Shown piece by piece: positions 23,892-61,264 of a stretch of DNA of 64,000 bases. Below the pieces are notes generated by a model. It was not told the DNA's origin and ran no database searches. It was given only the letters and a program-made list of their open reading frames with translations. Numbering within the stretch: position 1 is the first letter of the stretch; the number at the start of each line of letters is the position of its first letter. The translations under genes and the position numbers were made by a program. This DNA is from a virus. The stretch spans positions 22,640-86,639 of the IMG/VR virus record IMGVR_UViG_3300042261_001452. The stretch is one strand, 5' to 3'.

Positions 23892-26800
23892 TTATTTCCT
23901 TTGCTTATTTTGTATTTGCTCTGATTCTGTCATATCAAATAATTCTACTGGGGCAACCATGCATTGTCCATTCCAGAACATTCCTACACCTACATCTTCT
24001 AGTTTATCAAAGGCTTTTGAATCCTTAGCTTTTTTATCAGCATCTAGTCTTCTTATTATCTCTCTAAACTCCTCAGCCTTCTCAGGTGACAATTGTTGAT
24101 TATTTTTTAATTCATTATCAAGTTTCTTTAGGCCCTTATCAGCTATTGTATTATTATAAGCAACAACCAACTTATCATCTTGTATAATTCCTTTATTCTT
24201 TAAGAAGCTATATAGATAATCAGTTGATGTCGTTGCCCGAGCTACATTATCAGTGGATTGATTCTGTAAATTGGGTTTATTTTCCTGCTTTTTAACCTTT
24301 GTCTTATCAGTCTCTTCTCCCTTTTTAGGTTTTTCTGGAGTCTTAGCTGGAGGAGTTATTTTTTCTTGAGTGGTTTCTGCGGTTGGCTCTTCTTGATCCT
24401 CCTTCATTCCTTCATCCTTAAGATCTTGCATTGTCTTAGTTTTCTTAACAGGAACTCTTTCAAGTTTTGTCTTTGTGGGATCGTTAGGATCAGGGACTTC
24501 TATAGTAACCACTCCATATTGATCTTCCTCTTCCTCTTCTTTTTTCAGAGGGGCTTTACCATCAACAAGTTCTTGTAACTCTTTTGGCAAACGATAAACT
24601 TTTCTCATTACTGGATTTTTAGGATCTTTTTGAACTACTGTTGGATCTGGAACCATAACTTCTTCCAATGGTTTAGAAGCTAATAGTTCTGAAGTTTCTT
24701 TATGAATCTTTGTAGCATAGTCTCCAACACCTAGTTTATCCTTGCCTTCTCTATCTACTAGTGATTCATTGATTGCCCCTAATAGGTTTTCAGTTGTAAA
24801 AGGAAGTCCCATCATAGGAGTTTTTACTCCTCTCTTTAAGCTATCTTGCCATTGTGCATAAGAATCATATTCCTTGAACATCATTTCTACTAAGTTTACA
24901 ATTGAACGAACACCTAAGTGTTTACCTACTAGAGCTTTAGCAATTGCATCAACATCTACTTTGTTTTCTCTTAGGATATTTCTAATAACATCCCATCTTT
25001 GCTTAGGAGTATTGCCAAAGCTAGGTTGTGATAGCCAAGGATGATTAGGTCTAGCTTGTTCTTCATCATCAATGCATTCATTTAAGAATCTAACAAATTC
25101 TGAAGGATCATCTGGAGGTAGAACTTCCATTTGTCCCATCTGTCCTCTATTTTTTAGAGCGTTATCGAGATTTGCGACATTATTAGTGGTCATAATGACG
25201 AAGATATTTCTATTGATTAATAATTCTTGATTATCTCTTTCAAAGAATTGTAAGAATTTCTTTACTTGTTCTTTTGTTGTTTCATGAGTTTCTTGAGCGG
25301 CACCACCACCTCCGCCTCCACTAGTGCCTTGAGATAACATTCTGTCAATTTCGTCAAAGATATATATGCAGTTTCTAGAATCTGCAATATGTTCAATTAA
25401 TAGATCGGTAAGTCTTCCTGTTTCTCCTAGCCATTTATTCTTTGTCTGTTCAACATTTACAGAATATAAAGAAATAGGCTCGCCAACTGTTTGAATAATA
25501 TCTGCTAGAGCTTCCCCCCAAACAGTTTTACCAACTCCCGGTTTACCATATAGAATTGTAAAGTGAGGAATAGCAGTTTGCAGGAAAATAGAAGCCTGAG
25601 CTTTTAAATCTTTCCACATTCTATTGCTAGCAACAATTTCTTGACTATACATCTCTTTTGTTGCTTTATCTTTTGCAGAATCCCTTAATCTAGTTAATTC
25701 TTTAATCTTTTTAGCTATCTTGCTCATTTCTTCCCCATTTTCACTCAAAATGAGAAGTTTTGTCTTAATTTCCTCCATCTTTTCACCCCATCCACCTTTC
25801 TTATTATAGATGAATGATTTAAATTTAACTCTTGGAGTTTTGGCAACAATACCCATCGTCTGGCCTTTGCGCTCATTTGTTTCTTTAACTAGATTTTCTT
25901 TGGCGGTATCTGCATCAAAATAAATGCCCATTCTTTGACCTTGTTCATCATAAAGGGTTTCATTTAATCCATGAAGATTTTCACTTATAGTTTTATTTAC
26001 TAGATCAATTGCATCTTTTTGACTTAATCCAATAATTGCATTAACTAAAGCATTTACCACATCTTTAGATTGAGAATCTATTGTCCCTTTACTTCTTTCT
26101 TTTTCAAATTCTGTCTTTGCCTTTTCGAGTTCACTAACAAGAGTATTTGGATCATCTTCATACTCTTCTTCCAACTCTTCTTGTTTTCTATAAAGTCTTG
26201 CATCAACCATTTTATTAATAAATGGCCCCATCATATGCCTAACAATAATTCTTGCCTCTTCATCGGTAACTGGGAATGCTGCTAAGTCTGCATATTTGGC
26301 ACCTTCAATTTTAATCTTTTCATTGGATATAAAAACAATTCTTCTTCCATCTGGAATTGATTTGCCTTCAATAGCTTTAAGATCTCTCGCGGCACAAGTA
26401 TCAAAGAAGTCACTAAATCTTTTTTGATCTTGTAGCTGATATCTATAGCCTTGGCCTTCATCTTTCTTGTCGGATCTATTGCTATCAAATGGTTGAATGA
26501 CAGCACATCTATCCATATTTTGAAGAACCATTGTCTTGCCATGAGAACTTGCTTTAGCATTAAACTTTCTCATTTCTTCTTGTATGTTGCTTTGTTTAGC
26601 TAGAATTAGTCTAATTGTCTGAGAAGGATCTTCTTGCCCTTGCGGATTTTTAATTTTAGCTGTTAAAATTCCTAAAATATTATTTTTAATGCCAATTAAC
26701 TCTTCGTCTGTAGTTTGATATTCTTCTAATTTTGTACTTAGTATTTCTAGACTTCTATTAAAATCTGCTATGATAGATTCTTGACTTTGAGATCTATTTG

Positions 26801-28109
26801 CTCTATCTATTTGTCCACGAAAATCTTTATAAGATTCATTAAGCCATTTTAATGGATTCCAAGTTGCAAATCCACCTTCTCTAATATCTTCTAAACTAAA
26901 ATTCTTATATAGTCCAGTTCTGCCGAATAAGGCTCTTACTGTTAAGGAATTTGCTGGTAAAAATTTTGTCTGTCCTGCTTCTTCTTCTGGCAATTGTGAA
27001 GCAGCAAAGGCTTCTTGAAGATTAACGCTTCTTCCAGACCTAAGCATATTATAATAATTAATACAGACTCCTCTTTCTCTTCTATACTGCTGAAGAATGG
27101 TTGACTTTACATTTTCATGTAGCTTTTCCTCTATTTTATTTAAAATGGATATAGCCTCTAGATCAGCAGGAGAATTCATAACCGCCTCTTCATCCATATT
27201 AAGCAATCTTAATCTATCATTATAAATTGCTAATTCTTCTTTGGTTAAGTCACGAAGAATCTCTTCCTGTGACTCATATAATTTATTATTTCTTTTATCT
27301 TCTAATATTTTTTGGATTTTTTTCTGTCTTGCCTGAAGACTCTTATTAATTTTGGCATATCTTTCTTTAACTTCTTTAACATTAACAGGATTGCCATCAT
27401 CGTCAAATGAGGTGACATTCTTGGCACGTTCAGTATTAGCTGCTATAGCATTGTTAATTCTTTCTAGTTCTATTTCTATTCCTTTATATTCTCTATCTAG
27501 CAAGAGTCTTTTATGGGCCTCTCTCATTTTCATAGCAGTTGTCGATTCTTCCATTATCTCTTTAAGGTTCTTTTCAAATTCTATAATAGATTCTTTTATT
27601 TTTTTGCTATTTCCCGTTTGAGATCCATCTGGACTAAAAATTTGGTCAATAATAGAAAGATCAAATCCCTTCTCTTCTAACCAACTAGGAGTAACAACTC
27701 TTTCTTGTCCATAGAGAAGAGAATCAATATTATTGACCACGTTTGGATAATCCGTTGTTAATCTTTTACCTAGAAGATCATCAGTTGTAACATCTTGGAA
27801 GTAATCTTCTGGAAGACTAGCATTTGTTGCGTCTGGATAATAAACTTCATTGTTTGATGGAGGAATAGCATAACGCATAAGCATTTCAACTAATGGCATA
27901 TAAGGATCAGTACCAATTACAAAATTTACCATGCCTGTTGATCTTAGTTTAGAATATAATCTTTCATATTTGGGCAACTTACAAATAGCATCTAACATTT
28001 TATAATTGGCAACATCTTTTGTTCCCAAAACATCATTAAAATGTCCTAAGGCTGCTTGTTTCTTTAGTTTATTATTATGAATTTTCTTTATAGCTATTAT
28101 TTTAAACAT
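23892..28109 (-). CDS. Large AAA+ ATPase (Ycf46-like C-terminal half, long coiled-coil N-terminus)
   Basis: GKPGVGKT, KNKWLGET pore loop, IFDEIDR, MTTN...ALKNRG. Confidence 0.8.
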   Translation of the reverse strand: MFKIIAIKKIHNNKLKKQAALGHFNDVLGTKDVANYKMLDAICKLPKYERLYSKLRSTGMVNFVIGTDPYMPLVEMLMRYAIPPSNNEVYYPDATNASLPEDYFQDVTTDDLLGKRLTTDYPNVVNNIDSLLYGQERVVTPSWLEEKGFDLSIIDQIFSPDGSQTGNSKKIKESIIEFEKNLKEIMEESTTAMKMREAHKRLLLDREYKGIEIELERINNAIAANTERAKNVTSFDDDGNPVNVKEVKERYAKINKSLQARQKKIQKILEDKRNNKLYESQEEILRDLTKEELAIYNDRLRLLNMDEEAVMNSPADLEAISILNKIEEKLHENVKSTILQQYRRERGVCINYYNMLRSGRSVNLQEAFAASQLPEEEAGQTKFLPANSLTVRALFGRTGLYKNFSLEDIREGGFATWNPLKWLNESYKDFRGQIDRANRSQSQESIIADFNRSLEILSTKLEEYQTTDEELIGIKNNILGILTAKIKNPQGQEDPSQTIRLILAKQSNIQEEMRKFNAKASSHGKTMVLQNMDRCAVIQPFDSNRSDKKDEGQGYRYQLQDQKRFSDFFDTCAARDLKAIEGKSIPDGRRIVFISNEKIKIEGAKYADLAAFPVTDEEARIIVRHMMGPFINKMVDARLYRKQEELEEEYEDDPNTLVSELEKAKTEFEKERSKGTIDSQSKDVVNALVNAIIGLSQKDAIDLVNKTISENLHGLNETLYDEQGQRMGIYFDADTAKENLVKETNERKGQTMGIVAKTPRVKFKSFIYNKKGGWGEKMEEIKTKLLILSENGEEMSKIAKKIKELTRLRDSAKDKATKEMYSQEIVASNRMWKDLKAQASIFLQTAIPHFTILYGKPGVGKTVWGEALADIIQTVGEPISLYSVNVEQTKNKWLGETGRLTDLLIEHIADSRNCIYIFDEIDRMLSQGTSGGGGGGAAQETHETTKEQVKKFLQFFERDNQELLINRNIFVIMTTNNVANLDNALKNRGQMGQMEVLPPDDPSEFVRFLNECIDDEEQARPNHPWLSQPSFGNTPKQRWDVIRNILRENKVDVDAIAKALVGKHLGVRSIVNLVEMMFKEYDSYAQWQDSLKRGVKTPMMGLPFTTENLLGAINESLVDREGKDKLGVGDYATKIHKETSELLASKPLEEVMVPDPTVVQKDPKNPVMRKVYRLPKELQELVDGKAPLKKEEEEEDQYGVVTIEVPDPNDPTKTKLERVPVKKTKTMQDLKDEGMKEDQEEPTAETTQEKITPPAKTPEKPKKGEETDKTKVKKQENKPNLQNQSTDNVARATTSTDYLYSFLKNKGIIQDDKLVVAYNNTIADKGLKKLDNELKNNQQLSPEKAEEFREIIRRLDADKKAKDSKAFDKLEDVGVGMFWNGQCMVAPVELFDMTESEQIQNKQRK

Positions 28110-28188
28110 AATTATCTTCCTAAATTTTTATATTGATAAAATTTAACTTCTTTTATTATTTCTTGAAATAAATCCAAAACTCCTACCT

Positions 28189-30132
28189 TTATCCCTCTAT
28201 AAATCCTCTTTCTTTTACGGGAAAAGGAAGTTCAAGTTGTTCTTCTTTATTTTCTTCCTCTTCTGTAAAGAATTGTCTATCTCCTAACACTAATTCTCCT
28301 GTTCCATTTTTTCTTACAGAGCCTTGACTATTCTCAAGGATCTTTATAAAATTTTCAGAATTCCACTTGATTCCTTCCCCTGTTTTTACAAAGAAATAAT
28401 CATATGTAGCCATTTCCACTAATAATGTCTCAACATCTCTAACTGTAAACCCCTTAATTGTCGCTATATGTGCTATTCTATCTAAATCTAATTTATTAAT
28501 CTTTTCTTGAAATGTTTCTGCCGAACTATAGCCTATAATCTTAATGCCTCTATTATTCATTCTTCTGGCAGAGGTCAATAATGTCTCTTTTAAAGATTTG
28601 GCATCAAAGTTGTCAATATTTATTACTAAATCTGCTCTTCCAGATCTTAATAATGGGCCTGTTATATTTTCTTTATGGTTAGTTGTTAATACTATAAAGA
28701 TATTATTTTTAACTAACCCATTCTCTTCTTGAATATTTTGTAACCAATTCATGAATTCAGATTCAACCTGCTTATGAGATTCATGCATTCCTTGTCCAGC
28801 TTGATTTGTAGCACCAATGGCTCTATCATATTCATCTATCCTTACGATTAAATGAGAGGCATTAGCAATTTTTTTCAAACTTTCTCTCATTCTTTCTGCT
28901 CCTTCTCCAACCCATTTTGAGTGTACGGCACCTATATTAAAGTCCCATACATCAAATCCTAATAATCCTGCCAAATGAATCGGAAAACTACTTTTACCTA
29001 CTCCACCCTTTCCATAAAGAACTAAAACATGTGGTATTCTAGTTTGTAAGGCTTCTATTGTTTCAGAATAATAATCATCTTTACAAGATTTTAAGGCTTG
29101 ATCTTGGGCTTGTTTCAAATCCCTAATTTCATTAAAATCTCTCAATATCTTTTTAACATCATATGTAAAACTACTAGTCTCTGGACAAATATAATCTTCC
29201 CATGGTCTAGGTATTAATTGCGTGAGTCCAAATCCATCTTCCATAAAATTCTTATTAATTTTATCTCTTAATACTTTTACTAATGCATTTCCGTTAATAA
29301 TTGTTTCATCTACTTTATCTTTTGACCTAGAAAAAGCATATCCTAAAATATCACCTGCATTAAGATAAGTTAGACCAGAAACTTTTCTTAAAATTTGTTC
29401 TCTATGAGAATGATTCATAAGAACTTTATATTTGTAGTTATTAAATAAAAAGATATAACTATCCAATAAATGATCTGCACCAAATTTATCAACTGGAGGA
29501 AGTTCAATAGTTCTTATCTTAAAAGGAAATTGCAATTTTATATTTGATATCAATAATAATCTACAAGACTTTCTATTTGTGACATTTCTAAAATCATCAA
29601 AAATCCATAAGGCTCTTTGATCTATTCTTCCGGGTTCTTTACAAAAATCTAGACTATAATCAATATTTCTTATTACCAGATATTTATCTTTAAAATCATT
29701 TAGTAAAACTTCTTTCCTAGAAACAAATCCATCTGGTTTTCTCAATCTTTTACCAGTTTGATAATCTATTTTAAAGGTTGGCATTCCATTAGAATCAATT
29801 TCAGTTTCAAAATTACCATAAATAAGTTCATCTAAAGATGTTGTACTATTGCTTGCTCCGGGCGAACCTTTTTGAAGTTCGACAGCATCTATTTTAGTAG
29901 TATTACGAAATAACTCTTGTTTTTTAAAACAATCATCCAAGAAAAAATCAACAAGGCAAGGATCTTCATAATTTACAACTAAATTGGTTATTCCTGTTAA
30001 AGATAGCTTAATGGCTCCCAAAAGTTCTTTTTTAGTTTCTTGAAAACGCTCGCTATTTTGAATAAGTGAAATAAAATCAATATTCTTTTTGATTTTTTGA
30101 TTATTTTCTTCAATATTAATATCTTCTGCCAT
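28189..30132 (-). CDS. Ycf46-like AAA+ ATPase (degenerate N-terminal AAA plus active AAA)
   Basis: GKGGVGKS, HSKWVGEG, RIDEYDR, TTNH...PLLRSGRAD; ATG 30132 preferred because the TTG overlaps a terminator. Confidence 0.8.
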   Translation of the reverse strand: MAEDINIEENNQKIKKNIDFISLIQNSERFQETKKELLGAIKLSLTGITNLVVNYEDPCLVDFFLDDCFKKQELFRNTTKIDAVELQKGSPGASNSTTSLDELIYGNFETEIDSNGMPTFKIDYQTGKRLRKPDGFVSRKEVLLNDFKDKYLVIRNIDYSLDFCKEPGRIDQRALWIFDDFRNVTNRKSCRLLLISNIKLQFPFKIRTIELPPVDKFGADHLLDSYIFLFNNYKYKVLMNHSHREQILRKVSGLTYLNAGDILGYAFSRSKDKVDETIINGNALVKVLRDKINKNFMEDGFGLTQLIPRPWEDYICPETSSFTYDVKKILRDFNEIRDLKQAQDQALKSCKDDYYSETIEALQTRIPHVLVLYGKGGVGKSSFPIHLAGLLGFDVWDFNIGAVHSKWVGEGAERMRESLKKIANASHLIVRIDEYDRAIGATNQAGQGMHESHKQVESEFMNWLQNIQEENGLVKNNIFIVLTTNHKENITGPLLRSGRADLVINIDNFDAKSLKETLLTSARRMNNRGIKIIGYSSAETFQEKINKLDLDRIAHIATIKGFTVRDVETLLVEMATYDYFFVKTGEGIKWNSENFIKILENSQGSVRKNGTGELVLGDRQFFTEEEENKEEQLELPFPVKERGFIEG

Positions 30133-30145
30133 TTTATTATTATAC

Positions 30146-30181
30146 AAAAAAAGAAGGACGACAAAAATCGTCCTTCTTTTT
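30146..30181. terminator. Bidirectional terminator
   Basis: AAAAGAAGGACGA-CAAAAA-TCGTCCTTCTTTT. Confidence 0.8.
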
Positions 30182-30224
30182 AAGTTTGTTTATTATATGA
30201 GTTATAATATTTAGATTTTATATC

Positions 30225-31040
30225 TTACTTCTCATAATCTGTAACAAGAAGCTTACAGAAGTCTGGAATATAACCTAGATCATTCTTCCAGTATTCATAA
30301 ATCTTTTTCTTGACAGAAGGACTAAGCTTGGCAACTCTAACCATTCCATCACTATCAGTAGAAGCACTCTTCATCTCTACTTTCTTAGAAGCCTTGCCGC
30401 TTTCTTGAATGATTTCATCTTCCTTTTTGCCTTCGCCTTCATCTTCCTTATCTTCATCACCTTCTTCTTCGTCAGTGACTTCTAGCTCAATTGCTTCTTC
30501 CTCTTCATTATCTTCATCTGTATCAGTGATTTCAACTTCAATCTCTTCGCCATTGTCTTTATTTTCATCTTCAACAATGACTTCTGTATCTGCATCAACT
30601 GGCTCAGCTTCGTCTTCAATTTCGATTTCTACTTCTTCAGGAACAACTTTGTCACCACCAACTACTTCCTTAACTTCCTGAACAGCCTGCTCGACCTTCT
30701 CTACTGCCTGTCCTATTTTGCCAGCTAGATCTTCAGCTTTCTTGGCTTTATCAACAAGATCAGCAACGGCCTTTTGGGCATCAGTACCAACTTCCTTGCT
30801 AATCTCGCCAACTTGAGCCATGGGTTCCTGACAAGGAGCGCAAATCTCAGTAGTTTCTCCCTCTTCAACTGTAGCCTCTATCTGAGCTTTCTTATCACTT
30901 AGATAAGATTTTGCAGCAGCAAATAGAGCGTCTTTATCTGTTTTGTCTTGTTGGGTGCCTGTAGAAGCAGTCTTAGTTAGGACTTTGCCCTTAGGACTCC
31001 AATTAAATTCTGAATTACCAACTGGTGTAATAATAGCCAT
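30225..31040 (-). CDS. Acidic, probably highly expressed internal head protein
   Basis: E/D-rich; LTKTAS, DKKAQ, MKSAS motifs; codon usage like MCP. Confidence 0.7.
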   Translation of the reverse strand: MAIITPVGNSEFNWSPKGKVLTKTASTGTQQDKTDKDALFAAAKSYLSDKKAQIEATVEEGETTEICAPCQEPMAQVGEISKEVGTDAQKAVADLVDKAKKAEDLAGKIGQAVEKVEQAVQEVKEVVGGDKVVPEEVEIEIEDEAEPVDADTEVIVEDENKDNGEEIEVEITDTDEDNEEEEAIELEVTDEEEGDEDKEDEGEGKKEDEIIQESGKASKKVEMKSASTDSDGMVRVAKLSPSVKKKIYEYWKNDLGYIPDFCKLLVTDYEK

Positions 31041-31134
31041 TTTTATATCTCCTTATTTGTTCTTATGCACTCTATTATGTGCCTTGATATTGTTATACTC
31101 AAAAACTAATAAATATTCCTTCTTACATTTTTAT

Positions 31135-31356
31135 TTATTTTTTATCCCCATGAGCGGCATGATTCAACGTCCAGTCTTTCCCACTATCTTTCTGAAATTC
31201 TTCTAGGCAAGAAAACCAAGCCTCTTGAGGATTCATCCCATCATTTAGCTTACTTCGATAAGCATTCATCCAAGAACGAGAAAGCCCTAACATCAAGCCT
31301 CTTCCATCATCATTAAAAGCTTTTTTAACAAATTTATTTAAATTAAAAGTCGTCAT
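31135..31356 (-). CDS. Hypothetical protein, MTTFNLNKFVKKAF leader
   Basis: 73 aa; late promoter at 31367-31390. Confidence 0.7.
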   Translation of the reverse strand: MTTFNLNKFVKKAFNDDGRGLMLGLSRSWMNAYRSKLNDGMNPQEAWFSCLEEFQKDSGKDWTLNHAAHGDKK

Positions 31357-31406
31357 AATTATTTATTTCCTATATTTTAAAAAAAATCCTTCTGTTTTTT
31401 ATATTT

Positions 31407-32369
31407 CTACATTAATCTATCTACTTCCTGTCTACTTCTTTCACGAAATTCATTTAACTTATTAGGATCTATTTCTTGATCATTATAATCTAAAACTATT
31501 AAATTGACAATATTATCTAATAAAAAGCTCTTAGGTTGATTCCCTTTAATCGTCCATCCATCCCCACCAGATATATTTGAAGATATATCAAAAGCCACTA
31601 AAAATTCTCCGTTAGGCCCACTTTTAATGACATAACCTTCTCCGGGTAAAGGCATAACTTTTCTAGGGGGTAATATATGTCCATTTAATGTCCAATAAAT
31701 AATTTCCATTTTAAGGTTGAATTCATCAGCAAAACGAATTTTTCCTCTTAAATCTCTTAACCAATCAACCTTATCTGCCATTTCTTCATCATGTTTTTCT
31801 AGGTAAAGGCTTTGAGGATATTGCCCTCCTTCTGGCTGTTGTTCTGGAGGAGTTAATTCTTTTGGCTGTTCTTCTACTTTCTCTGGAATTGTCTTAGTTT
31901 CTTCTACCTTAGGAGTTTCTTTTGGCTTAACTTCTTCCTTTTTGGGTTCTTCTTTCTTTTTAAATGGTCTTGATAATAAATCTTTAATTGTCTTAATAAA
32001 TCCGCCTTGGGCAGTTATTTCTCTTTTATTTCTATGAGTAACGCCTTCTCCAACTATTGAAAATCCAATATTTACATTATTCTCTCTAAACCAATTCTTA
32101 TTGACTTCCAATGCATATTTACAAGGTTTATTAGAACGAATTGATCTTGTGCTTAAAGGAGCCATACTTTCTATTTGAGTAATTGTTCCTTTTTCATCTA
32201 TAAAGGCAATATCTAATGGAATATAAGTATTCTTCATCCAAAAACTTAAAACATTAGATTCTGGAAATTTAAATAGCATTCCATTATTTTGAGCTAATTT
32301 TTTCCTTCCCATTAATCCAAGTTCCCTCTTGGAAGGAGTATCAGCTAATTCTATTTTTAGTTTTTTCAT
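31407..32369 (-). CDS. DUF192 domain fused to a WYL-like C-terminal domain
   Basis: ELADTP..R.LGLM...GMLF...FWMKNT.IPLDIAF; C-terminal IIY...G....RKVMP...LVAFD...KSFLLDNI. Confidence 0.75.
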   Translation of the reverse strand: MKKLKIELADTPSKRELGLMGRKKLAQNNGMLFKFPESNVLSFWMKNTYIPLDIAFIDEKGTITQIESMAPLSTRSIRSNKPCKYALEVNKNWFRENNVNIGFSIVGEGVTHRNKREITAQGGFIKTIKDLLSRPFKKKEEPKKEEVKPKETPKVEETKTIPEKVEEQPKELTPPEQQPEGGQYPQSLYLEKHDEEMADKVDWLRDLRGKIRFADEFNLKMEIIYWTLNGHILPPRKVMPLPGEGYVIKSGPNGEFLVAFDISSNISGGDGWTIKGNQPKSFLLDNIVNLIVLDYNDQEIDPNKLNEFRERSRQEVDRLM

Positions 32370-32602
32370 TTTTCTCTTGCTGCCTTTTCCAAAGTAAAAA
32401 CATCTTGCCAAGAAATTCCACTTGTATCTAAGCCTTCAGTTAATTCCTGATAAGCATCTTCGTCTTCACAAGTGAAATATAAATTTCTAGATCCTGCTTT
32501 ATTTGCCAAGTTAACACCATAAGGTACTTCTAGACTATATTGCCCATTAATAACCTTTTGGTATTGTGATTTAGAAAGAATAGCTATTATATCTTTTGCC
32601 AT
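32366..32602 (-). CDS. Hypothetical protein
   Basis: 78 aa, ATGA overlap with next gene. Confidence 0.65.
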   Translation of the reverse strand: MAKDIIAILSKSQYQKVINGQYSLEVPYGVNLANKAGSRNLYFTCEDEDAYQELTEGLDTSGISWQDVFTLEKAAREK

Positions 32603-32603
32603 A

Positions 32604-33065
32604 TTAATCTAATCTGATATTATTGTTATTATTAGCAGCATATGTAGGAGTTCTGTATCCTGTTTTTCCTTTAATGCTTATACTTGCTAAAATTTCAGTA
32701 TATTTCTTACTCTTCTGATCTTTTAAGAACTTATTATTCTCTCCTAGTGCCATCGTAGTAATAATAGTTTTTGCTCTATTAGTAAAACTAAGTTTTTGTT
32801 TGTCTTCAGAAATCAGCCCTCTCTGCTTTAATCTTTGAATGTCATCTTTTGATATTTTTGAATTTTCTTTTAGCTTATATATTTCATCGCCAACTTTTTC
32901 AGTTTCATTCCAAATCTCTACAAGAAGATCGGCATCATTATTAGAGGCTAAAACCTCTAATCCATTTTTTTTAACAGGACCAATATTCTTTAAAAAAGAA
33001 TAATCTATTCCAGAATACCCTGTCTCATTATTCTCATCTTTAGTCTTTCCTATTGGCAATGGCAT
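32604..33065 (-). CDS. Hypothetical protein (possible winged helix)
   Basis: IQRLKQRGLI...LSFTNRAK pattern. Confidence 0.6.
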   Translation of the reverse strand: MPLPIGKTKDENNETGYSGIDYSFLKNIGPVKKNGLEVLASNNDADLLVEIWNETEKVGDEIYKLKENSKISKDDIQRLKQRGLISEDKQKLSFTNRAKTIITTMALGENNKFLKDQKSKKYTEILASISIKGKTGYRTPTYAANNNNNIRLD

Positions 33066-33066
33066 T

Positions 33067-36000
33067 TTAGTCTCCTATTAGTTTTTCTAATCTAAATTTC
33101 TTCAAAATATCCCTTAATTCCTCTCCATCTTTACAATTAAATAAAGTAGATATATTTTCATTTATGTAAATTCTATACTTTTCATCAAATAATAAATTTG
33201 AATTTGATATAATTGCAACCATAAGATCTTCTGAAATATTATATCCCTCAATATTATATTTAATCGCTCTTACAATAATCATCGGATTGAGTTTAACTAC
33301 TTCATTAGCATCTAAAACAGTCTCTAATGTATTATTATTTATATCTTCTACCGCTCTCCCAAGAATATCAATAATATTATTATCACATATATTAAGAGCC
33401 AATGTATTTATTGTAAAATCTCTATTGCATGCTGACCTGACTAAGCTATTTTTTAAATGTTCTTCATTTAATTCTTCAGTAAGCTTATTTAATTTTGGAT
33501 AATGAGCAGATTTACTAAAATCTAGCTGTATTCCTTTATATACAAACGAAAGGCCAAAACGAGCACTTTCATAAATGTCTTCCCCACTAACGCCAAGTTT
33601 TTCCATTAAGGCATAGCCTATCTTTTGGCAAACATCTGGATTATTTGCGATAAATTCTAGTTTATTAATATTAAAGTCCTTATTAAGATAAATTCTTCTA
33701 GGCAAATCACCAATAATATAAAAATTGCTATATTCTAACTCCTTACATATATGCTTAATATTAGATACAATAGACTTAATATTACTCTCTCTTTTCTCCT
33801 TAATACCAATAATCTTCTCTACTATATTCTTTAGCTCTTCTTTTACTTCATTATTTTGAAAATAAGATTCACAATCATCTATTAAAGTATCTCTTAATTC
33901 TTCTGAAAAAAGCCAAATTGCACAAACATCTTCCCAATCTCCAATTGTTTTTGGAGGAATATCATATGTATTGACTCTTATTCCATCCTTGGGCATCATT
34001 TTAATTATAAAGTCAGAGAATCCTTTATTTGTAACTATTCTACTTGCCTTGATTTTATTATTTAGAATACTATATTCTATAGTTCTTAAAATCTTTAAAA
34101 TATCAATAATTTCTTTATCTAATTGTCCTTTTTGTGCAAATCTTAAAGCTGGAGTTGTATGAGAATAATCTCTTGTCATATCATCAAATAACTGAGGACG
34201 GAATCTAGGCTCAATCCATCTATAATAAAACCCTTTGACATCATATTCTGGGTTATATCTTGGCTGCTTGCGAATTTCTTTATCACTCCATGCAAAATCT
34301 TCATCTCTATCATCCCAAGCCATTACTCTATCGCTTAATCCGGGAATAGTGCTTCCATCTGAAATATCAAGATTATTAAACCATCCAAATAGGAATCTAT
34401 CTCCAGCTTTTCTCGCTTCTTTCTTAAAAGGATCATAAGAAAAAGCTTTAATATTCTCTATCTTTAGATTTTCTGTAATAGGAATCATTAATGGCTTAGG
34501 TCTTTTATTCTCTAAAAGCATTTCGAGAGAAGTATAGCCTATAGATTCATCTCTGCTAGGCTCCAATAATTCTTCCATGATTAATTTTACATTTGGCCTA
34601 GAATCCATTCTAGTTTGTTTTCTTAATTGTTCTTCAATACTATTGTCTCTTTGAGATATATCAGGAGCAAGATATTGTCTATTATCTCTTGCAATCTCTA
34701 ACCTTCTATCGGTTGGGTCGCCTGAGCGTTGAGTTAGAATCATCGACCAATCAGGCAAAGAAGATAAATTAGATTGAGAAAGATATCTTCCTTGAATATC
34801 TGAGCCAGTAGGCTGTCCACTTAAAACAGACCCAGACATATGAGGACGAAATTGGGCTTGTTTATACCAAGAGTTACTTTGAGCATGAATTGTTTCGTGA
34901 CCTACAGAAAGAGGCGTATAATATTTTTCTAAATTAGAACTCTGAAGCCGTTTCATATATTCTGAATTTACATAGTTGGTTTGCGCCCATGCTCTAAATT
35001 TAGCTTCTTCTGCTTCTGCTGGTCCTTCACTTGTAGCTCCCTTAGAGTGAGTAGCTTCATGTACAATTGTTGCAGCTAAATGATATATCCCAAGAACATT
35101 TGTTAAAATTTGCTTGATTTCACTAGGCAAATTAGGATCTTGGTTTCTTAACCCATCAATAATATTATTAACATTTTGATTGGTGGCACTAATTATTCCG
35201 CTCATATTAAGACCAATAGCTGTTCCTCCACCACTTTCTATTTGTCTCCATAGTGAATCTATATCTTCTTCTACCTTGGCTTGATCAATAGCATCATCTT
35301 TAGGATAGGCAAACAACATATTATTTTCATCTTTAATGATATAGCCTTTTTGTTCTAACTTCTTCTTAAGAAGATTAGTTTTAATAGCTCTATCTAAGGC
35401 TGGAACATAAACGCCAAAAGCCCCGCCTTTAGAGAAATTAAACACAAATGCTATATTTCTGAGAAAATCTCCAGAATATTTATTTACTAGTTGAATAGCT
35501 TCATTTGTTCCACCAAAGACTCCTGCAATTTGAGAGGCATCAACAGATGACGTTCCTATAAATCTTTCAGCATGCTCGGGAATATTGCCAGAAAAATATC
35601 CATCGAAATCTGTTGGTTTTTCTATCTTCATTTGAGCATTTTTCTTTATCCCTTCATACCAATTAGAAGCAATATTCTCATCAAACAAGTTTCTCATTCT
35701 CTTTAGTTTCTTAATTCTTTCCATTTCTGGGGAAATCGTTGAAGATGGAGTCTTTTCTTCCTCGTCTGTATCCTCTTGTGAAGCTTGTTCTGATTGTGGT
35801 AATGGCTTTACTTCTGGAGTTTGTGGAATTTTATCTTCTGCTTCCTGAGAAGGCATATCATAATTTTTAGGTCTATTTAGTTCAAAATTCCAGTTGTTCT
35901 TTGTAGCATCAACTGGAATATAATTTATATTTTCTGATCCCACATACTTTTTCTCAGATTTTGCTGATTCAATAGCTTTTCTTAAAATAACTCTTACCTC

Positions 36001-36774
36001 ATCTATGTTTTCTCTATATGTTTCTTGCAATGGTTGAACCTTAGATTGATTTTCACTTTCAAGATCAATGTATTCAAAGGCAGGAATAAATGCTGAGCTA
36101 GAAAACTCACTAAGTCCCCTACGTCTAACAATAAATAAATTCATTACCGATGCATGATAAATTCGACTCTTCATTCTTGTTAATCTGACTAGGCCCATTA
36201 TATCATATGATCCATATTTAGTTGTCTGTTCGTCATAAATGGCTTCTCGCTCAGCAATTGTGTCTGCTAGTCTTTCTTTTTCAGATTTATTTCTTTCTTT
36301 CTCTATTCTTACTTCTTCTATATATTCCTCATAATCATTAACTGTCAATGCAGATCTTGATCCCCATGGAATTCTAAAAATAGCTAAAATTCTTCTAACT
36401 GCCTCATTATAAGGTAATTGTTTTTTACTCTTATCATACTCTACAGTAAATATAGGTTTATTATCAAGAATGCTAAAAAGCGTGACTGTAAAAGAATTGT
36501 ATTTGTCTTGACTTTTACCATATACCATTTTTAACATGTATTCTGGTCTATTTTTTACCCTATTTGGAAGATTAATGTTCCCAATGCAGGTTTTAAAGGC
36601 AGAATCATCAGTATAAGAGAATTCTTCTTTGTTTTGCCAAATAATTCCCGGACTTTTTGATATTTTAAAGAAAAAATTTCTCTGAACACTATTAATATCT
36701 TTTATAGTAGCTACGTTACTTATAAAATTGAATTCTGATTGCTCAGAAGATTGTGCTTTTTTATACCAATTCAT
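33067..36774 (-). CDS. Multidomain probable polyprotein: unknown domain, HExxH metallopeptidase-like domain, degenerate nucleotidyltransferase domain
   Basis: Start MNWYKKAQ; IVHEATH...EAE; C-terminal FYIIGDLPR...RDFTIN...NPMIIVRAIKY lacking DxD. Confidence 0.7.
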   Translation of the reverse strand: MNWYKKAQSSEQSEFNFISNVATIKDINSVQRNFFFKISKSPGIIWQNKEEFSYTDDSAFKTCIGNINLPNRVKNRPEYMLKMVYGKSQDKYNSFTVTLFSILDNKPIFTVEYDKSKKQLPYNEAVRRILAIFRIPWGSRSALTVNDYEEYIEEVRIEKERNKSEKERLADTIAEREAIYDEQTTKYGSYDIMGLVRLTRMKSRIYHASVMNLFIVRRRGLSEFSSSAFIPAFEYIDLESENQSKVQPLQETYRENIDEVRVILRKAIESAKSEKKYVGSENINYIPVDATKNNWNFELNRPKNYDMPSQEAEDKIPQTPEVKPLPQSEQASQEDTDEEEKTPSSTISPEMERIKKLKRMRNLFDENIASNWYEGIKKNAQMKIEKPTDFDGYFSGNIPEHAERFIGTSSVDASQIAGVFGGTNEAIQLVNKYSGDFLRNIAFVFNFSKGGAFGVYVPALDRAIKTNLLKKKLEQKGYIIKDENNMLFAYPKDDAIDQAKVEEDIDSLWRQIESGGGTAIGLNMSGIISATNQNVNNIIDGLRNQDPNLPSEIKQILTNVLGIYHLAATIVHEATHSKGATSEGPAEAEEAKFRAWAQTNYVNSEYMKRLQSSNLEKYYTPLSVGHETIHAQSNSWYKQAQFRPHMSGSVLSGQPTGSDIQGRYLSQSNLSSLPDWSMILTQRSGDPTDRRLEIARDNRQYLAPDISQRDNSIEEQLRKQTRMDSRPNVKLIMEELLEPSRDESIGYTSLEMLLENKRPKPLMIPITENLKIENIKAFSYDPFKKEARKAGDRFLFGWFNNLDISDGSTIPGLSDRVMAWDDRDEDFAWSDKEIRKQPRYNPEYDVKGFYYRWIEPRFRPQLFDDMTRDYSHTTPALRFAQKGQLDKEIIDILKILRTIEYSILNNKIKASRIVTNKGFSDFIIKMMPKDGIRVNTYDIPPKTIGDWEDVCAIWLFSEELRDTLIDDCESYFQNNEVKEELKNIVEKIIGIKEKRESNIKSIVSNIKHICKELEYSNFYIIGDLPRRIYLNKDFNINKLEFIANNPDVCQKIGYALMEKLGVSGEDIYESARFGLSFVYKGIQLDFSKSAHYPKLNKLTEELNEEHLKNSLVRSACNRDFTINTLALNICDNNIIDILGRAVEDINNNTLETVLDANEVVKLNPMIIVRAIKYNIEGYNISEDLMVAIISNSNLLFDEKYRIYINENISTLFNCKDGEELRDILKKFRLEKLIGD

Positions 36775-36817
36775 AATAGTATTATACTTCAAAAAAATGA
36801 ACAAAAAACCTTTAAAC

Positions 36818-36851
36818 AAAAAGCCAACGAAGAATTATCTCGTTGGCCTTT
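36818..36851 (-). terminator. Rho-independent terminator
   Basis: GCCAACGA...TCGTTGGC stem with flanking A/T tracts. Confidence 0.65.
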
Positions 36852-36872
36852 TATTTTTCAAACTATTCTTTT

Positions 36873-37220
36873 TTAAACGCCAAAGCCTTTATCTAAGGCT
36901 CTTTGAGTGCTTTGTGGATCAAGATCTTCAAGAGTTCTAAGACCCTTTGACTTTTCTTTCTGTGGAGTCTTAGCAGTAGGAGCCTGTACTCTACTTAAAT
37001 GTTTAGTAGCTTCTTCTAGTCCTTCTGCTGTTAGTCCTGAATCTAGCTTATCCTCACCTTCGGCTAGCATATCTATTAGTGTTTGGTCTAACCCATCAGA
37101 ACAACTAGATCCTTCAGAGTGTCCAAGAATATGATAGGCTGCACTGCCACTTTCCATATCAAGAGTAATTTGGATTGTTCTTTTTCCCTTTCCTGCTGCG
37201 GCTAATTTAAATATTTTCAT
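36873..37220 (-). CDS. DUF2997-like small protein with MKIFKLAA leader
   Basis: IQITLD.ESG....I.G..GSSC pattern; directly downstream of the DUF1257-like gene. Confidence 0.5.
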   Translation of the reverse strand: MKIFKLAAAGKGKRTIQITLDMESGSAAYHILGHSEGSSCSDGLDQTLIDMLAEGEDKLDSGLTAEGLEEATKHLSRVQAPTAKTPQKEKSKGLRTLEDLDPQSTQRALDKGFGV

Positions 37221-37237
37221 TTTATTAATCCTCTTTC

Positions 37238-37690
37238 TTAGTTTAGAATTTTTCCTTTTACTGATCCCATTGCCTCATCAGGAACTTCTAGAGTTATAAT
37301 AACCTTATTGCCCGCTTTAGTTATTTTTGGGGTAGCACCTAGTTTTGCAGCTAATGCCTTTAAATTTCTTTCTTTAATCTTGGTTTTAACGACATTTGGA
37401 ATATTTAATCCGCCTTTTGTTTTCATATAGTCGGAGTCTGCAATCATAGTCCAATTACCATCATCATCCTGTGCAAAACCGATTGATCTCCATGATCCTT
37501 TTAAAACAACCTTACATTTTCGTCCATTAACTAATGTTTCGCCACTAGGATCAATAACTAAATGCTTGCGCCATTCAGATCCTATCATGCTTTTCCAATG
37601 CTGCATTACATCACCTTGTCCTACCAAAATATCTACCAAAACGTTAACGGAACATTTACATTTCATATTTGTAGTCATCCAAGTACTCAT
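37238..37690 (-). CDS. DUF1257/Ycf35-like protein
   Basis: MS.W.T.....L...L start, IGFAQDDDGNWTMIAD core, C-terminal A.KLG...GNKVIITLEV. Confidence 0.6.
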   Translation of the reverse strand: MSTWMTTNMKCKCSVNVLVDILVGQGDVMQHWKSMIGSEWRKHLVIDPSGETLVNGRKCKVVLKGSWRSIGFAQDDDGNWTMIADSDYMKTKGGLNIPNVVKTKIKERNLKALAAKLGATPKITKAGNKVIITLEVPDEAMGSVKGKILN

Positions 37691-37704: not shown

Positions 37705-38775
37705 TTATTTAATATCTTTTAAAAATTGTTCTAAATAGATAGATGATAATCCTGCATTTAGGCCATACTCACCAACATCTGAAACAATTGCCGTCAACAT
37801 TCCTATTACTTTCCCATTATTTATATTAACTATTGGACACCCACTATTGCCGGGGAAAGCTGATAAATCAACAAATATATAGTCTGGAGCATTTGTATAA
37901 TTGTAAATTCGTCTATTTAAACTTCCAATTGTTCCAAATGTCACATTATTCTCAAATCCATGCGGACTTCCTACTGCCATTATATCTAACCCAATAGTAA
38001 TGCTTTGCCGATTATCTAATTCAAAAGGCTCTACATCTATATCTGCCCTTAATAATGCAATATCTAATGTTGGATTAACTTTTTCAATAACTGCTGGATA
38101 TTTTTGATTATTTTGCATTAAGAATATTTGAATATTATTAGATATTCCAACGTTTTCCATTTCTTTTCTAGCAGCATTATTATTTTTATCATATCTTGAA
38201 ATGACATGAGCGCAAGTTAAGAATAATCCAGGACCAATACAAAATGCAGATCCAATTTCTCTAACTCCTTTTAGTGCATTAATACTTTCAACCATAAAAG
38301 TCTTTTCAAGAGCTTCTGCAATAACTATAGCCTTATTATTCTGGGCAATTCTAGTTAATGATATTGAAGATATCCCTTTGTCTTTTAAGTTTGATATATA
38401 TTTCTGAGCAGAATAATAAGAAGAAAAAGTTTTTGCTCCACCGGGAACTTTAACTCTCCATTTTTCCATATTTAATTGACCTATAGGAAGCATACCCTCT
38501 AAGATAGACATATCCATTTGTTCTCTTTTATATTGTCCACCATCTTCCTTATAAGATTTGCCTACATCTTCGCCCCATGTTTGCGGAGACATTTCAGACC
38601 AATCTCCTCCACCACTTGGTATACGATATTTTTTACCCTCTAAAGCATCTTGCAAGGTAAAAACATTGTTAGCTGGAATAACTGATTTATCCGTAATCGG
38701 ACTTAATCCAGTTCCCGGACTAATTATTTCAGGCATAAAGGTTCTTGATTCTTTTATTATGGGTTTCTTTTCCAT
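37705..38775 (-). CDS. Trypsin-like (HtrA-type, no PDZ) serine protease with N-terminal extension
   Basis: GSAF, LTCAHV, DIALL, VGSPHG, PGNSGCP triad motifs. Confidence 0.85.
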   Translation of the reverse strand: MEKKPIIKESRTFMPEIISPGTGLSPITDKSVIPANNVFTLQDALEGKKYRIPSGGGDWSEMSPQTWGEDVGKSYKEDGGQYKREQMDMSILEGMLPIGQLNMEKWRVKVPGGAKTFSSYYSAQKYISNLKDKGISSISLTRIAQNNKAIVIAEALEKTFMVESINALKGVREIGSAFCIGPGLFLTCAHVISRYDKNNNAARKEMENVGISNNIQIFLMQNNQKYPAVIEKVNPTLDIALLRADIDVEPFELDNRQSITIGLDIMAVGSPHGFENNVTFGTIGSLNRRIYNYTNAPDYIFVDLSAFPGNSGCPIVNINNGKVIGMLTAIVSDVGEYGLNAGLSSIYLEQFLKDIK

Positions 38776-38808: not shown

Positions 38809-39585
38809 CTAGTACTCGCCTGTTTTATCGCCACTAATATCTTCTATATCTGGATTATTATTTAAATTTATAAAAGCACCTTTTACATTATCGCTAATCT
38901 TATTGTTTATTTCAGTGTCTATAAATGCCTCTCTATCAGAATTATCATCTACAGAATTAATAAACTTAATATTCTTCCCTTTAGCTCTTGCTTTGGCAGA
39001 AACTTCTGATTCTAGAAGGATAGAATTTCTCATATTTACTTTGGTTGCTTCTTTTCCAGTTCCAACAGTAGCTTCTAATCCCATTCTTTCATTCATTTGC
39101 AAATTAGATTCGTCAACTTCTATTTCCTCTTCATTTTCGTAATCTTCTTCTTCTAATCTCTTTAATGCCTCAATTGAAGCTCTTGTTGCATCTGTTTCTG
39201 GGATATCGCCAGTCATATTTCTTAACATTTTCCCATGTCTAGGACCATTAAGAGTCATAGCTGTAACTTCGCTATTGTCAGTTTTATCTTCTTTTCTAGC
39301 AATTGCCTTAACAAACTTCTTAACTGAAGTATTATTTTTATTCTCTATTGGGGTATTTCCATTCTCTATTATAGGATTAATTTTTATTTCTTCCATTCTT
39401 TGGGTTTTAGCCTCTAAGGACTGTGAATCTATCAAAAGGCCAGCATTCTTAAGACTAATAATTTCTCGCATTTGTTCATCATCTGTAATTTCTATATTAG
39501 ATAATTTGGTTTTACCTACCAAAGAACGCTTTAAACTATTTAACACAATAGTAGAATCAGTCAATCCCTGTATGGAAATAATCAT
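38809..39585 (-). CDS. Hypothetical protein
   Basis: 258 aa, AAGGAG RBS. Confidence 0.7.
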   Translation of the reverse strand: MIISIQGLTDSTIVLNSLKRSLVGKTKLSNIEITDDEQMREIISLKNAGLLIDSQSLEAKTQRMEEIKINPIIENGNTPIENKNNTSVKKFVKAIARKEDKTDNSEVTAMTLNGPRHGKMLRNMTGDIPETDATRASIEALKRLEEEDYENEEEIEVDESNLQMNERMGLEATVGTGKEATKVNMRNSILLESEVSAKARAKGKNIKFINSVDDNSDREAFIDTEINNKISDNVKGAFINLNNNPDIEDISGDKTGEY

Positions 39586-39622
39586 GTTTTTACTCCTTTG
39601 TTTTTCTTCTATTATACAAGAA

Positions 39623-39832
39623 TTAATAAAGTGCGTCTAAAGAAATATGCTTTTTATCCATTTCTTTTCTAATCTTAGCTAAAAACTTAGATTTTTCACC
39701 CTGAGAAAATTGAGCAGCACCTAATAGACTCATTATTTCTCTATTGGCAGCAGGGAGATCAACATCCTTAAATTTACTAATAAAAGAATTAAAAGCCTTA
39801 TTTACTTTATTTTCAGATGTTTTAGGGTCTAC
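39623..39832 (-). other. 69-codon -1 frame extension of the 450-aa gene (putative frameshift product)
   Basis: A9-G-TAG at 39841-39829; -1 frame open VDPKTSENK...LDALY* with no start codon near its beginning. Confidence 0.55.
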
Positions 39833-43135: not shown

Positions 43136-43136
43136 G

Positions 43137-43934
43137 TTACTCCTCAATTAATGATATTATTTTATTATCTGTACTTAAAGATATATTTCGGAGTTTTGGG
43201 TTTTGATAGTTTATAACTATATTAGTTGTACTCATTGATAATAAATATACTGTACTTTCATTATTATAGTATAAAATATTATTTATAATAAAAAGTTTTT
43301 CCATTTTTATATTTCTTTTTTTAGGATCTCCCACTATAATTCTATGAGATGGATTATGATGAACACTTCTAAATCCCCTTAAACATCCATTTCCATAGTC
43401 TGAAAAAATAAGCTCATTCTTATAGAAAGAAATGCCTTTTGGAATAGATAAGCTAGATTTCAAAATATCATCAGATAAAGAATAGTTTCTATCTCCTTTT
43501 CCTATTGTATAGCATACCTTTAAATCTTTAATTATAAAACATCTATTAAGATTTTCTACACTTATATATATATTATTATTATCTACATGTAACTTGGCCT
43601 TAGGGTTTTTAATATTATTAAATAGGTTGCGAAAATCTGCTCTCTCAGATTTACTTAAATAATATTTATTAATAAATGGACTAAAAACTTCGCCATCTGC
43701 TAATAAATAGATAGTATTATTAAAAGAACAAACTCCTTGTATTTGATTCTCTGCTATTTTTATTTCTTTTATAATACGCCCATCTAGACCAACAAGATAT
43801 GCCTTTTGTTGCTCTACTATAAAAAATCCATTATCAACACAACAAAAATCTTCTATCGGGGAAGAAGTATTTAATTGAAGGATTAACTCTGGATCTTTAA
43901 TGCCCGGTTTTTTATGAACAAAGTTATATTTCAT
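43137..43934 (-). CDS. Beta-propeller (NHL-like) protein
   Basis: LSIPKGIS...LIFSDYGNGCLR repeat-like motif. Confidence 0.5.
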   Translation of the reverse strand: MKYNFVHKKPGIKDPELILQLNTSSPIEDFCCVDNGFFIVEQQKAYLVGLDGRIIKEIKIAENQIQGVCSFNNTIYLLADGEVFSPFINKYYLSKSERADFRNLFNNIKNPKAKLHVDNNNIYISVENLNRCFIIKDLKVCYTIGKGDRNYSLSDDILKSSLSIPKGISFYKNELIFSDYGNGCLRGFRSVHHNPSHRIIVGDPKKRNIKMEKLFIINNILYYNNESTVYLLSMSTTNIVINYQNPKLRNISLSTDNKIISLIEE

Positions 43935-52070: not shown

Positions 52071-52385
52071 CTATATACTAGTTAATTCGGTAATTATATG
52101 ATCTTTCCTTTGTAAACCTATAAGTTTTTTAACTAATATGCCATCTTTAAATATGGCTATTGTAGGAACACTCTTAACTTCTAGACTTTTAGCAATGGAC
52201 TGTTCATCGTCTATATTTATTTTTATAAATTTAGCAATATTGTCTGTTTGCTTTTCTATCTCTTGTAATATTGCTAATTGCATTTTGCATGGCCCACACC
52301 ATGTAGCAGTAAAATCAACCAATGATATTCCTCTTGCAATTTCTTCATTAAAATTAGTAACTGTTTCTTCCTTAATTTCTATCAT
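52071..52385 (-). CDS. trxA: Thioredoxin
   Basis: VDFTATWCGPCK, SVPT. Confidence 0.93.
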   Translation of the reverse strand: MIEIKEETVTNFNEEIARGISLVDFTATWCGPCKMQLAILQEIEKQTDNIAKFIKINIDDEQSIAKSLEVKSVPTIAIFKDGILVKKLIGLQRKDHIITELTSI

Positions 52386-58364: not shown

Positions 58365-58400
58365 TTCTTCCTCCTATTAGTATATTATTCTCTATACCAC

Positions 58401-58677
58401 TAAGGAATCCCTTAAAGATAGAATTCTAATATTTGCCTATGCCCCTAAGGAATCCCTTTGCTTTTAGAAATTAGATTTTTATATAGAATAAGGAATCCCT
58501 TAATATCCAGAATTTAAAATTTTATTTTTTTTATTTACGCCCTAAGGAATCCCTTAACTTTTAGAATCTAGATTTCTATTTCCCCACACTATTATCCCAC
58601 CCCTATAAAATTCTTATAAATATTTATTATTGATTTAAAATAAAACCTTCGTCAAACTAGTCATAAGGCATCCCTTA
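58401..58677. repeat. Five iteron-like TAAGG(A/C)ATCCCTT repeats
   Basis: Copies at 58401, 58446, 58489, 58543, 58664 in AT-rich non-coding DNA. Confidence 0.85.
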
Positions 58678-61241: not shown

Positions 61242-61264
61242 GTAAGTCTTTGGAATAGAGTGTA

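Follow-up and report, generated by a model that had tools for sequence, protein, structure and literature searches.

Cyanobacteria and the plastids of the red lineage conserve three proteins: Ycf46, Ycf35 (a DUF1257 protein) and DUF2997. Within the literature listings and passages that our search covered, all three appear only as unexplained open reading frames (ORFs), and no phage module of Ycf46, DUF1257 and DUF2997 was found there. Here we describe a gene block of a huge uncultured phage in which very diverged relatives of the two small families occur together with AAA+ ATPases. The window, by which we mean the whole 64,000-nucleotide (nt) stretch that was analysed, covers positions 22,640 to 86,639 of IMG/VR record IMGVR_UViG_3300042261_001452, itself an 86.6-kb fragment with a CheckV completeness estimate of 22%; coordinates below are those of the window. 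Between the genes for the large terminase (TerL) and the portal, the block holds very diverged DUF1257 and DUF2997 homologues and one or two paralogous classical-clade AAA+ ATPases. In the window these are P0002, a DUF1257/Ycf35-like protein of 150 amino acids (aa; 37238..37690); P0001, a DUF2997-like protein of 115 aa (36873..37220); AAA-S, a short ATPase (28189..30132); and AAA-L, a giant ATPase of 1405 aa (23892..28109). All four ORFs occupy the coordinates that an earlier note on this DNA had given. They are on the minus strand, and the short ATPase may start at ATG 30132 (647 aa), as in that note, or at TTG 30147 (652 aa).

The cellular trio was verified on cyanobacterial genomes. Five reference genomes, selected by a 16S primer scan, each carry two paralogues of PF06868 (DUF1257) and one PF11211 (DUF2997) gene, and in all five DUF2997 adjoins DUF1257. 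DUF2997 stands directly upstream of the DUF1257 paralogue Ycf35, which is followed by a ferredoxin gene; the cluster DUF2997 / ycf35 / fed7 is also listed in PMC4284462. The other DUF1257 paralogue lies directly downstream of the Ycf46 ATPase gene, an arrangement found in 26 of 34 cyanobacterial Ycf46 loci. Two of these loci contain all three genes, and in seven more DUF2997 lies within ~600 nt of a Ycf46 paralogue, so the trio that the earlier note had named is real. A wider cyanobacterial sample showed that 47 of 81 genomes carry DUF2997 and that 41 of 61 carry Ycf46. At several cyanobacterial loci (L237, L245, L246 and L248–L251) a gap of ~570–1280 nt separates the Ycf46 paralogue from DUF2997; the DUF1257 profile finds nothing in it, and it may hold a diverged DUF1257-like gene.

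Phages also encode the pair in canonical form. In Prochlorococcus phage P-SSM2, PSSM2_178 (Pfam E-value (E) 7.9e-18) and PSSM2_179 (E 3.3e-24) are adjacent canonical DUF2997 and DUF1257 genes, annotated as hypothetical. The canonical pair occurs in 380 confirmed IMG/VR contigs, and among the best 80 of these 380 loci both genes were found in 75. The cyanophage and window pairs are alike in being phage-encoded and in belonging to the same two families. However, the cyanophage copies are host-like (30–45% identical to cyanobacterial Ycf35), keep the host gene order and sit among metabolic and replication genes, whereas the window pair is far more diverged and sits in a morphogenesis block.

Profile-profile comparison links P0002 to DUF1257. 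A word-based search with P0002 alone returned only P0002 itself, and a full HMMER scan returned five relatives; a profile of nine relatives then gathered 67 proteins, none of which has a precomputed Pfam domain. Aligned with hhalign, the P0002 family of 72 sequences matched ten DUF1257 references at a probability (Prob) of 94.6 (E 6.6e-8, 118 columns) and 42 cyanobacterial DUF1257 sequences at Prob 97.2 (E 3e-11, 115 columns). Fifty column shuffles scored at most 17.0, against 70.1 observed. The alignment takes in the common MSH[FW] start and the D-x-G-F motif, as well as the helix and strands at the C-terminus; homology at the profile level extends across the whole domain, and the DUF2997-like neighbour lies 17 nt away, as expected of a DUF1257 gene. 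Pfam itself gave a weak DUF1257 match in only 3 of the 72 family members (best E 0.0039), and P0002 falls below the PF06868 gathering threshold. The AlphaFold2 (AF2) model of P0002 has a predicted local distance difference test score (pLDDT) of 84.7, and a structure search of the ESM Atlas placed DUF1257 clusters in its first two rows, with template modelling (TM) scores of 0.58–0.60. A fold search with the model returned one unnamed BFVD match (E 5.6e-4, TM 0.53) and nothing from the PDB at E ≤ 0.001, and a PDB sequence search with the family profile returned no matches. The Atlas also gave a weak similarity of P0002 to fvmX2 of FtsH ternary systems (TM 0.47–0.49), which we record as a lead only.

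For P0001, a strong match to DUF2997 emerged only after both alignments had been deepened and a spurious N-terminal extension of one reference had been trimmed. Four sequences against five gave Prob 0.3 (E 0.21, 13 columns). With 20 sequences in the P0001 family, hhalign returned Prob 47.7 against the five-sequence DUF2997 set (E 1.9e-4, 55 columns), Prob 73.1 against 53 uncleaned DUF2997 sequences (E 3.1e-5, 57 columns) and Prob 95.1 against the same 53 once the one reference was trimmed (E 3e-8, 56 columns). In 100 column shuffles the score did not exceed 14.3, against 44.2 observed, and a reversed control gave Prob 0.3. Cross-family comparisons, which served as controls for both small proteins, gave Prob 0.15–0.3, and shuffled and cross controls overall stayed at or below Prob 1.3. 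The match covers the whole 47-residue DUF2997 domain, conserved cysteine included: the cysteine of the G-x-x-G-x-x-C motif aligns with Cys40, which is invariant in the 20 P0001-family sequences. The AF2 model of P0001 is poor (pLDDT 57.5), its ESM Atlas search yielded nothing usable, and no Pfam domain is present in any of 25 database relatives.

Taken together, the profile comparisons make it well supported that P0002 and P0001 are remote homologues of DUF1257 and DUF2997 that lie below Pfam's reach. The identities proposed in the earlier note thus hold at the profile level, where the controls were clean. Pfam, by contrast, overlooks a substantial viral branch of each small family, represented in this analysis by 72 and at least 45 sequences. 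Like cyanobacterial and plastid Ycf35 and DUF2997, the phage proteins are encoded by two small neighbouring genes with profile homology over whole domains, and they keep the MSH[FW] start and D-x-G-F of DUF1257 and the G-x-x-G-x-x-C and T-x-E-Y of DUF2997. They differ in that the order is reversed, with the DUF1257-like gene first (as in one cyanobacterial locus, L247), in having no ferredoxin neighbour, in falling below Pfam thresholds and in standing in a head-gene block. P0001 further differs from DUF2997 by a tail of 50–60 residues whose last positions, G-[FY]-G-[VI], are conserved, and some members also have an N-terminal MKIxKxA extension.

Both ATPases carry a PF00004 AAA domain, at residues 376–512 of the 652-aa form of AAA-S (E 2.2e-20) and at residues 852–988 of AAA-L (E 7.7e-20). 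In AAA-S this classical-clade core follows an N-terminal domain of ~360 aa; AAA-L has additional N-terminal sequence and, towards its C-terminus, a region rich in Lys and Glu. Aligned with each other, the two proteins match at Prob 99.9 over 453 columns, extending ~200 residues upstream of the AAA core, and on this similarity they are clear paralogues. AAA-S displays the Walker A motif GKGGVGKS, the Walker B motif IDEYD, a KWVGEG loop and RSGRAD, and the Walker motifs and the KW[VL]GE loop are retained in both proteins. The KW[VL]GE loop occupies what we take to be the pore loop 1 position of classical AAA+ translocases. Both ATPases thus possess the classical AAA module with intact ATPase motifs that is expected of a Ycf46 member. 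PDB sequence matches to AAA-S were VAT, Afg2, Cdc48/p97 and FtsH (E 6.9e-17 to 1e-8 over residues 360–535). AAA-S shares with VAT, Cdc48/p97 and FtsH the Walker A and B motifs, the aromatic-hydrophobic-Gly loop and the second region of homology, but it has one recognisable AAA module and no protease domain. Its N-terminal domain has no solved relative by sequence.

Whether Ycf46 is the closest family depends on the depth of the comparison. Searching five cyanobacterial genomes with AAA-S retrieved FtsH-type ORFs of ~620–690 aa at E 1e-12 to 1e-13 and Ycf46 genes at 2e-9 or weaker, and with shallow alignments FtsH outscored Ycf46 by 92 to 86. With deep alignments of 39 sequences on each side, AAA-S scored 111.8 over 362 columns against Ycf46 and 89.6 over 249 columns against FtsH, FtsH being the sole comparator family and the Ycf46 references non-curated. 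The segment of AAA-S before the AAA core matched Ycf46 in the deep alignments at Prob 60.6 (E 8.3e-5, 77 columns), against Prob 0.0 for the FtsH N-terminal control; with shallow alignments the N-terminal part alone reached Prob 14.1, and the N-termini of AAA-L and Ycf46 matched at Prob 0.2. The earlier note's term 'Ycf46-like' is therefore weakly supported: both ATPases have a classical AAA domain, but FtsH does better in genome searches and shallow profiles and Ycf46 only with deep profiles. AAA-S resembles Ycf46 in having a single active classical AAA module C-terminal to a long N-terminal domain, and differs from it in that this domain is ~100 residues longer and in that its gene does not adjoin the DUF1257-like gene.

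The block lies among head genes. TerL (41252..43147, minus strand; phrog_2, E 3.1e-27) forms its upstream edge and the portal gene (16871..21238, minus strand; phrog_16240, E 4.8e-35, and Pfam), which carries intein/LAGLIDADG and DUF559 inserts, its downstream edge; all genes across 16.8–49.7 kb of the window are on the minus strand. Past the portal lie the gene for an 1842-aa protein with an N-terminal match to head-maturation proteases and then that for the major head protein (6372–7238), whose identity to Bacillus phage G gp27 (NC_023719.1) is 56%. Because terminase, portal, head protein and protease domain surround the block, the earlier note was correct to place it inside a head gene cluster. 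Phage G has portal, head protein and protease domain in common with the window and a different gene set between terminase and portal. A megablast search with the region gave no match.

This position between terminase and portal is conserved alongside the structural genes. Relatives of AAA-S were found in five IMG/VR loci and 63 metagenome loci, which reduced to 58 distinct loci after duplicate removal, and all 58 have an identical gene order as far as each reaches: TerL, 450-aa, 258-aa, protease, DUF1257-like, DUF2997-like, 1250-aa, 153-aa, 78-aa, DUF192, 73-aa, 271-aa, AAA-S, [AAA-L], 329-aa, 531-aa, portal. Counts for the pair come from the 19 loci that span the protease to the 1250-aa gene. 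The DUF1257-like gene is present in 18 of them, the exception being L197, and a hidden Markov model (HMM) detects the DUF2997-like gene in 18, the nineteenth (L170) having a diverged copy recognised by eye only. HMMs find both genes in 17 of the 19, and so the co-occurrence in related phages on which the earlier note had staked its proposal is borne out. Members of the pair families are 13–38% identical and keep their place between protease and 1250-aa gene across the 19 loci. Of the 37 distinct loci that cover the interval from AAA-S to the 329-aa gene, 11 have AAA-L there.

Within the block the pair and the ATPases fall into separate transcription-like units. One unit consists of the 258-aa gene (38809..39585), a Trypsin_2 serine protease gene (37705..38775; PF13365, E 1.5e-22), the DUF1257-like gene and the DUF2997-like gene, all on the minus strand with gaps of 14–33 nt. 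The protease is immediately upstream of the pair in every locus reaching it. A TGTATAATA box stands at 39610–39618, upstream of the 258-aa gene, and a minus-strand terminator-like hairpin of 18 pairs with a T run (36814..36856) lies directly 3' of the DUF2997-like gene. Seven conserved minus-strand ORFs follow (30225..36819), among them the 1250-aa (with a nucleotidyltransferase piece), 153-aa, 78-aa, DUF192 (334 aa), 73-aa and 271-aa genes. After the 271-aa gene comes another terminator-like hairpin (30148..30181), which the scan lists on the plus strand and whose palindrome and T run are also readable on the coding minus strand; TGTATAATA then recurs at 30138–30146, just before the AAA-S start. 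The box thus precedes the 258-aa, AAA-S and portal genes. It occurs four times in the window against 1.36 expected, a count reached in 6 of 100 shuffles. From the boxes and hairpins, the pair closes a unit with the trypsin-like protease and AAA-S opens another.

Two details of the earlier note do not survive this arrangement intact. It had credited the giant ATPase with its own late promoter, but neither a TGTATAATA box nor a recognisable promoter motif precedes AAA-L, and a generic promoter scan of the window ran at chance (89 sites against 82.6 in shuffles). It had also called the pair adjacent to the ATPases. The two genes of the pair are indeed neighbours, but they lie 6.7 kb upstream of AAA-S with the seven ORFs and a terminator-like hairpin between, so that the direct ATPase–DUF1257 adjacency of the cyanobacterial Ycf46 loci is not found here. 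The module genes lie scattered across 14 kb and belong to three or more transcription-like units.

Short terminal sequences recur among the proteins of the block. P0001 begins with MKIFKLAA, as had been noted, and a strict MK-I-x-[KR]-h-[AS] start is found in 6 of 18 P0001 orthologues, 4 of 23 members of the 1250-aa family and 6 of 41 members of the 329-aa family, where more members fit a looser pattern; the other 14 block families have none. Since the leader is absent from 12 of the 18 P0001 orthologues, it is dispensable for P0001. The short ATPase has no leader, in agreement with the earlier note, and neither do any of its 53 orthologues. The KKQAA and VARA sites that the note had pointed out in AAA-L are present, at residues 16–20 and ~1289. 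AAA-L starts without an MKI leader, and its KKQAA belongs to a K-x-A-[SAV]-x-G-x-F motif at residues 17–31 in 9 of 14 members, the window protein counted. VARA, on the other hand, is not conserved in 13 aligned orthologues; the motif that follows it, S-[ST]-T-D-Y-L-[YF]-N-[FY]-L-K-K, is. The sequence M-[KR]-I-[FIYK]-[KR]-[IL]-[AS] also occurs at or shortly after the start of many unrelated minus-strand ORFs of the window, and genes with MKI-type leaders start on that strand at 5393, 5767, 22899, 33067, 36873, 51425, 52511, 52938, 56673 and 57735.

At the C-terminus, the mutually unrelated 258-aa (38809–39585), 450-aa (39829–41181) and 531-aa (21302–22897) families tend to end in an acidic stretch plus F-x-[IV]-x-[DE]-h. 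DAFIEI, EFPVVEA and DFPIVEA are examples, and the 258-aa orthologues have D-x-F-[IL]-E-h. The strict pattern x-F-P-[IVFLM] recovers 13 of 29 members in the 531-aa family and, in the 450-aa family, 2 of 7. To judge by these endings, the acidic F-x-[IV]-E-type tail may be a common docking tag of the three proteins. The idea of one common terminal peptide for the ATPase and its partners was rejected: P0001 ends in G-[FY]-G-[VI], the end of AAA-S is variable (G-F-x-E or F-F-like), and the acidic tail is that of the 258-aa, 450-aa and 531-aa proteins.

Our preferred interpretation, which we hold tentatively and at rather less than an even chance, is that the pair is an accessory of an AAA-S-driven protein-remodelling step in head morphogenesis. 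Because the two small genes are neighbours in cyanobacteria, in cyanophages and here, their products would form one unit. This unit would serve, as adaptor, regulator or dedicated client, a remodelling step driven by a hexameric AAA-S unfoldase. The trypsin-like protease that is co-transcribed with the pair may contribute to that step or feed it. The proteins would act in the infected cell during assembly and not as a virion-borne injection device, and AAA-L would be an optional duplicate of AAA-S.

A number of results weigh against this interpretation. Neither small protein has a Pfam match even at E ≤ 10; PF06868 and PF11211 run over the whole 86.6-kb record also found nothing, P0001 falls below the gathering threshold as P0002 does, and scans with NCBIfam, PHROGs and PADLOC matched neither protein. 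On the profile comparisons above, the ATPases can be called specifically Ycf46-like only weakly. In the best 80 of the 380 canonical viral loci, a 6-kb search around the pair met neither a Ycf46-like nor an AAA-S-like ATPase, and therefore the pair can work without a phage ATPase: what is robust is the pair, and its association with an ATPase is facultative. Phage G is, by its head protein, the closest cultured relative; its first 50 kb contain none of the three module families, and tblastn with P0002 and P0004 against GenBank phages gave no match; the module is therefore unnecessary for a phage-G-type head. Every block gene is equally colinear, so the co-occurrence of pair and ATPases is non-specific. 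Pair and ATPases sit in separate transcription-like units 6.7 kb apart, and L197 has AAA-S and the DUF2997-like gene but lacks the DUF1257-like gene.

The unit structure would also fit a different partner. The small proteins could serve the trypsin-like protease, whether by regulating it, by inhibiting it or as its substrate adaptors, leaving AAA-S and AAA-L as independent assembly chaperones; the order 258-aa, protease, DUF1257-like, DUF2997-like is kept in every locus reaching it with gaps of 14–33 nt in the window, a TGTATAATA box precedes the unit and a strong terminator-like hairpin directly follows it, and AAA-S has its own box after another hairpin. We nevertheless consider a protease partnership rather unlikely, given that the pair has no conserved protease neighbour in cyanobacteria or cyanophages and that in cells the DUF1257 paralogue goes with an AAA+ ATPase. 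The canonical viral loci, 80 of 80 without the ATPase among the best 80 of 380, would fit a self-contained pair unrelated to ATPases or heads, whose place in the head block is historical. Such a pair might be linked to redox or metal chemistry through the invariant Cys40, and a ferredoxin gene does stand beside the pair in cyanobacteria and nearby in P-SSM2. Against this autonomy speak the place between protease and 1250-aa gene, strictly kept in 19 loci at 13–38% identity between members, and the features that the phage versions have gained, namely the long tail with its conserved G-[FY]-G-[VI] end and, in some, the leader common to neighbouring head-block proteins. On balance we think it unlikely.

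The earlier note had itself proposed a partly virion-borne threading machine that loads cargo with K-x-A leaders into proheads or delivers it into the host. The shared MK-I-x-K-h-A N-terminus of P0001 (6/18), the 1250-aa family (4/23) and the 329-aa family (6/41, strict), the K-x-A-[SAV] motif conserved 17–31 residues into 9 of 14 AAA-L members and the pore-loop-like motifs of both ATPases all suit such a machine. Yet 12 of 18 P0001 orthologues lack the leader, VARA is not conserved, 26 of 37 loci have no AAA-L, and we know of no AAA+ unfoldase that loads phage heads; we regard the proposal as very unlikely. That the small proteins resemble DUF1257 and DUF2997 by chance is the least probable account and close to refuted. 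It could draw on the missing Pfam matches, on the Prob of 0.3 from the first small alignments of the 115-aa family and on the poor AF2 model of P0001. The full-length profile matches, however, stand far above 150 shuffled and three cross or reversed controls, the two proteins match the two partners of one cellular pair, and the Atlas structure matches are independent support.

A wider version of our preferred interpretation, an accessory pair serving AAA-S, can be framed, though we judge it a good deal less probable and quite unlikely. Ycf46-type unfoldases with DUF1257 and DUF2997 would be one ancient protein-remodelling machine, which phage-G-like huge phages would have rebuilt into head assembly to unfold or thread terminally tagged proteins; the tags would be the N-terminal MKIxKxA leader and K-x-A sites, perhaps with the acidic F-x-[IV]-E tails as well. 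If true, it would be the first clue to what the orphan plastid genes ycf46 and ycf35 do. Relatives of all three families at the profile level, weakly so for Ycf46, stand here inside a strictly conserved head block, near a protease and terminally tagged proteins, a setting in which standard phage genetics and proteomics could reveal their clients and timing. The value of the locus is limited by the canonical pair already being common in cyanophages without the ATPase, and by the functional link between pair and ATPase being our inference only.

Several neighbouring genes have features of their own. The portal ORF encodes 1455 aa, with LAGLIDADG/intein-splicing matches at ~residues 171–421 and a DUF559/restriction endonuclease domain at residues 1353–1429; relatives match portal segments only, and therefore the inserts vary among loci. 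The 1842-aa protein (8177–13705) has its head-maturation-protease match at residues 68–221 and a TFIIB-type zinc ribbon at residues 1186–1222. By these matches, a canonical prohead protease appears to be fused to this giant protein. DUF3150 was searched for in the record without a match.

Outside the block, ORFs 53557–55422 and 55619–56482 are identical over their first 36 residues, differ at residue 37 and share an identical 22-nt upstream sequence, which looks like a recent tandem duplication at the sequence level. From 58000 to 64000 the G+C content rises from ~0.31 to 0.42–0.48 and the GC skew changes sign; tRNA genes were looked for in this interval and none was found. Auxiliary genes of the window encode a ferritin/rubrerythrin-like protein (338–802), a CCA-adding-type nucleotidyltransferase with an HD domain (3383–5386), the large subunit of ribonucleotide reductase (45380–48007), a papain-family protease on the plus strand (49883–50746) and a thioredoxin-like WCGPC protein (52071–52385).

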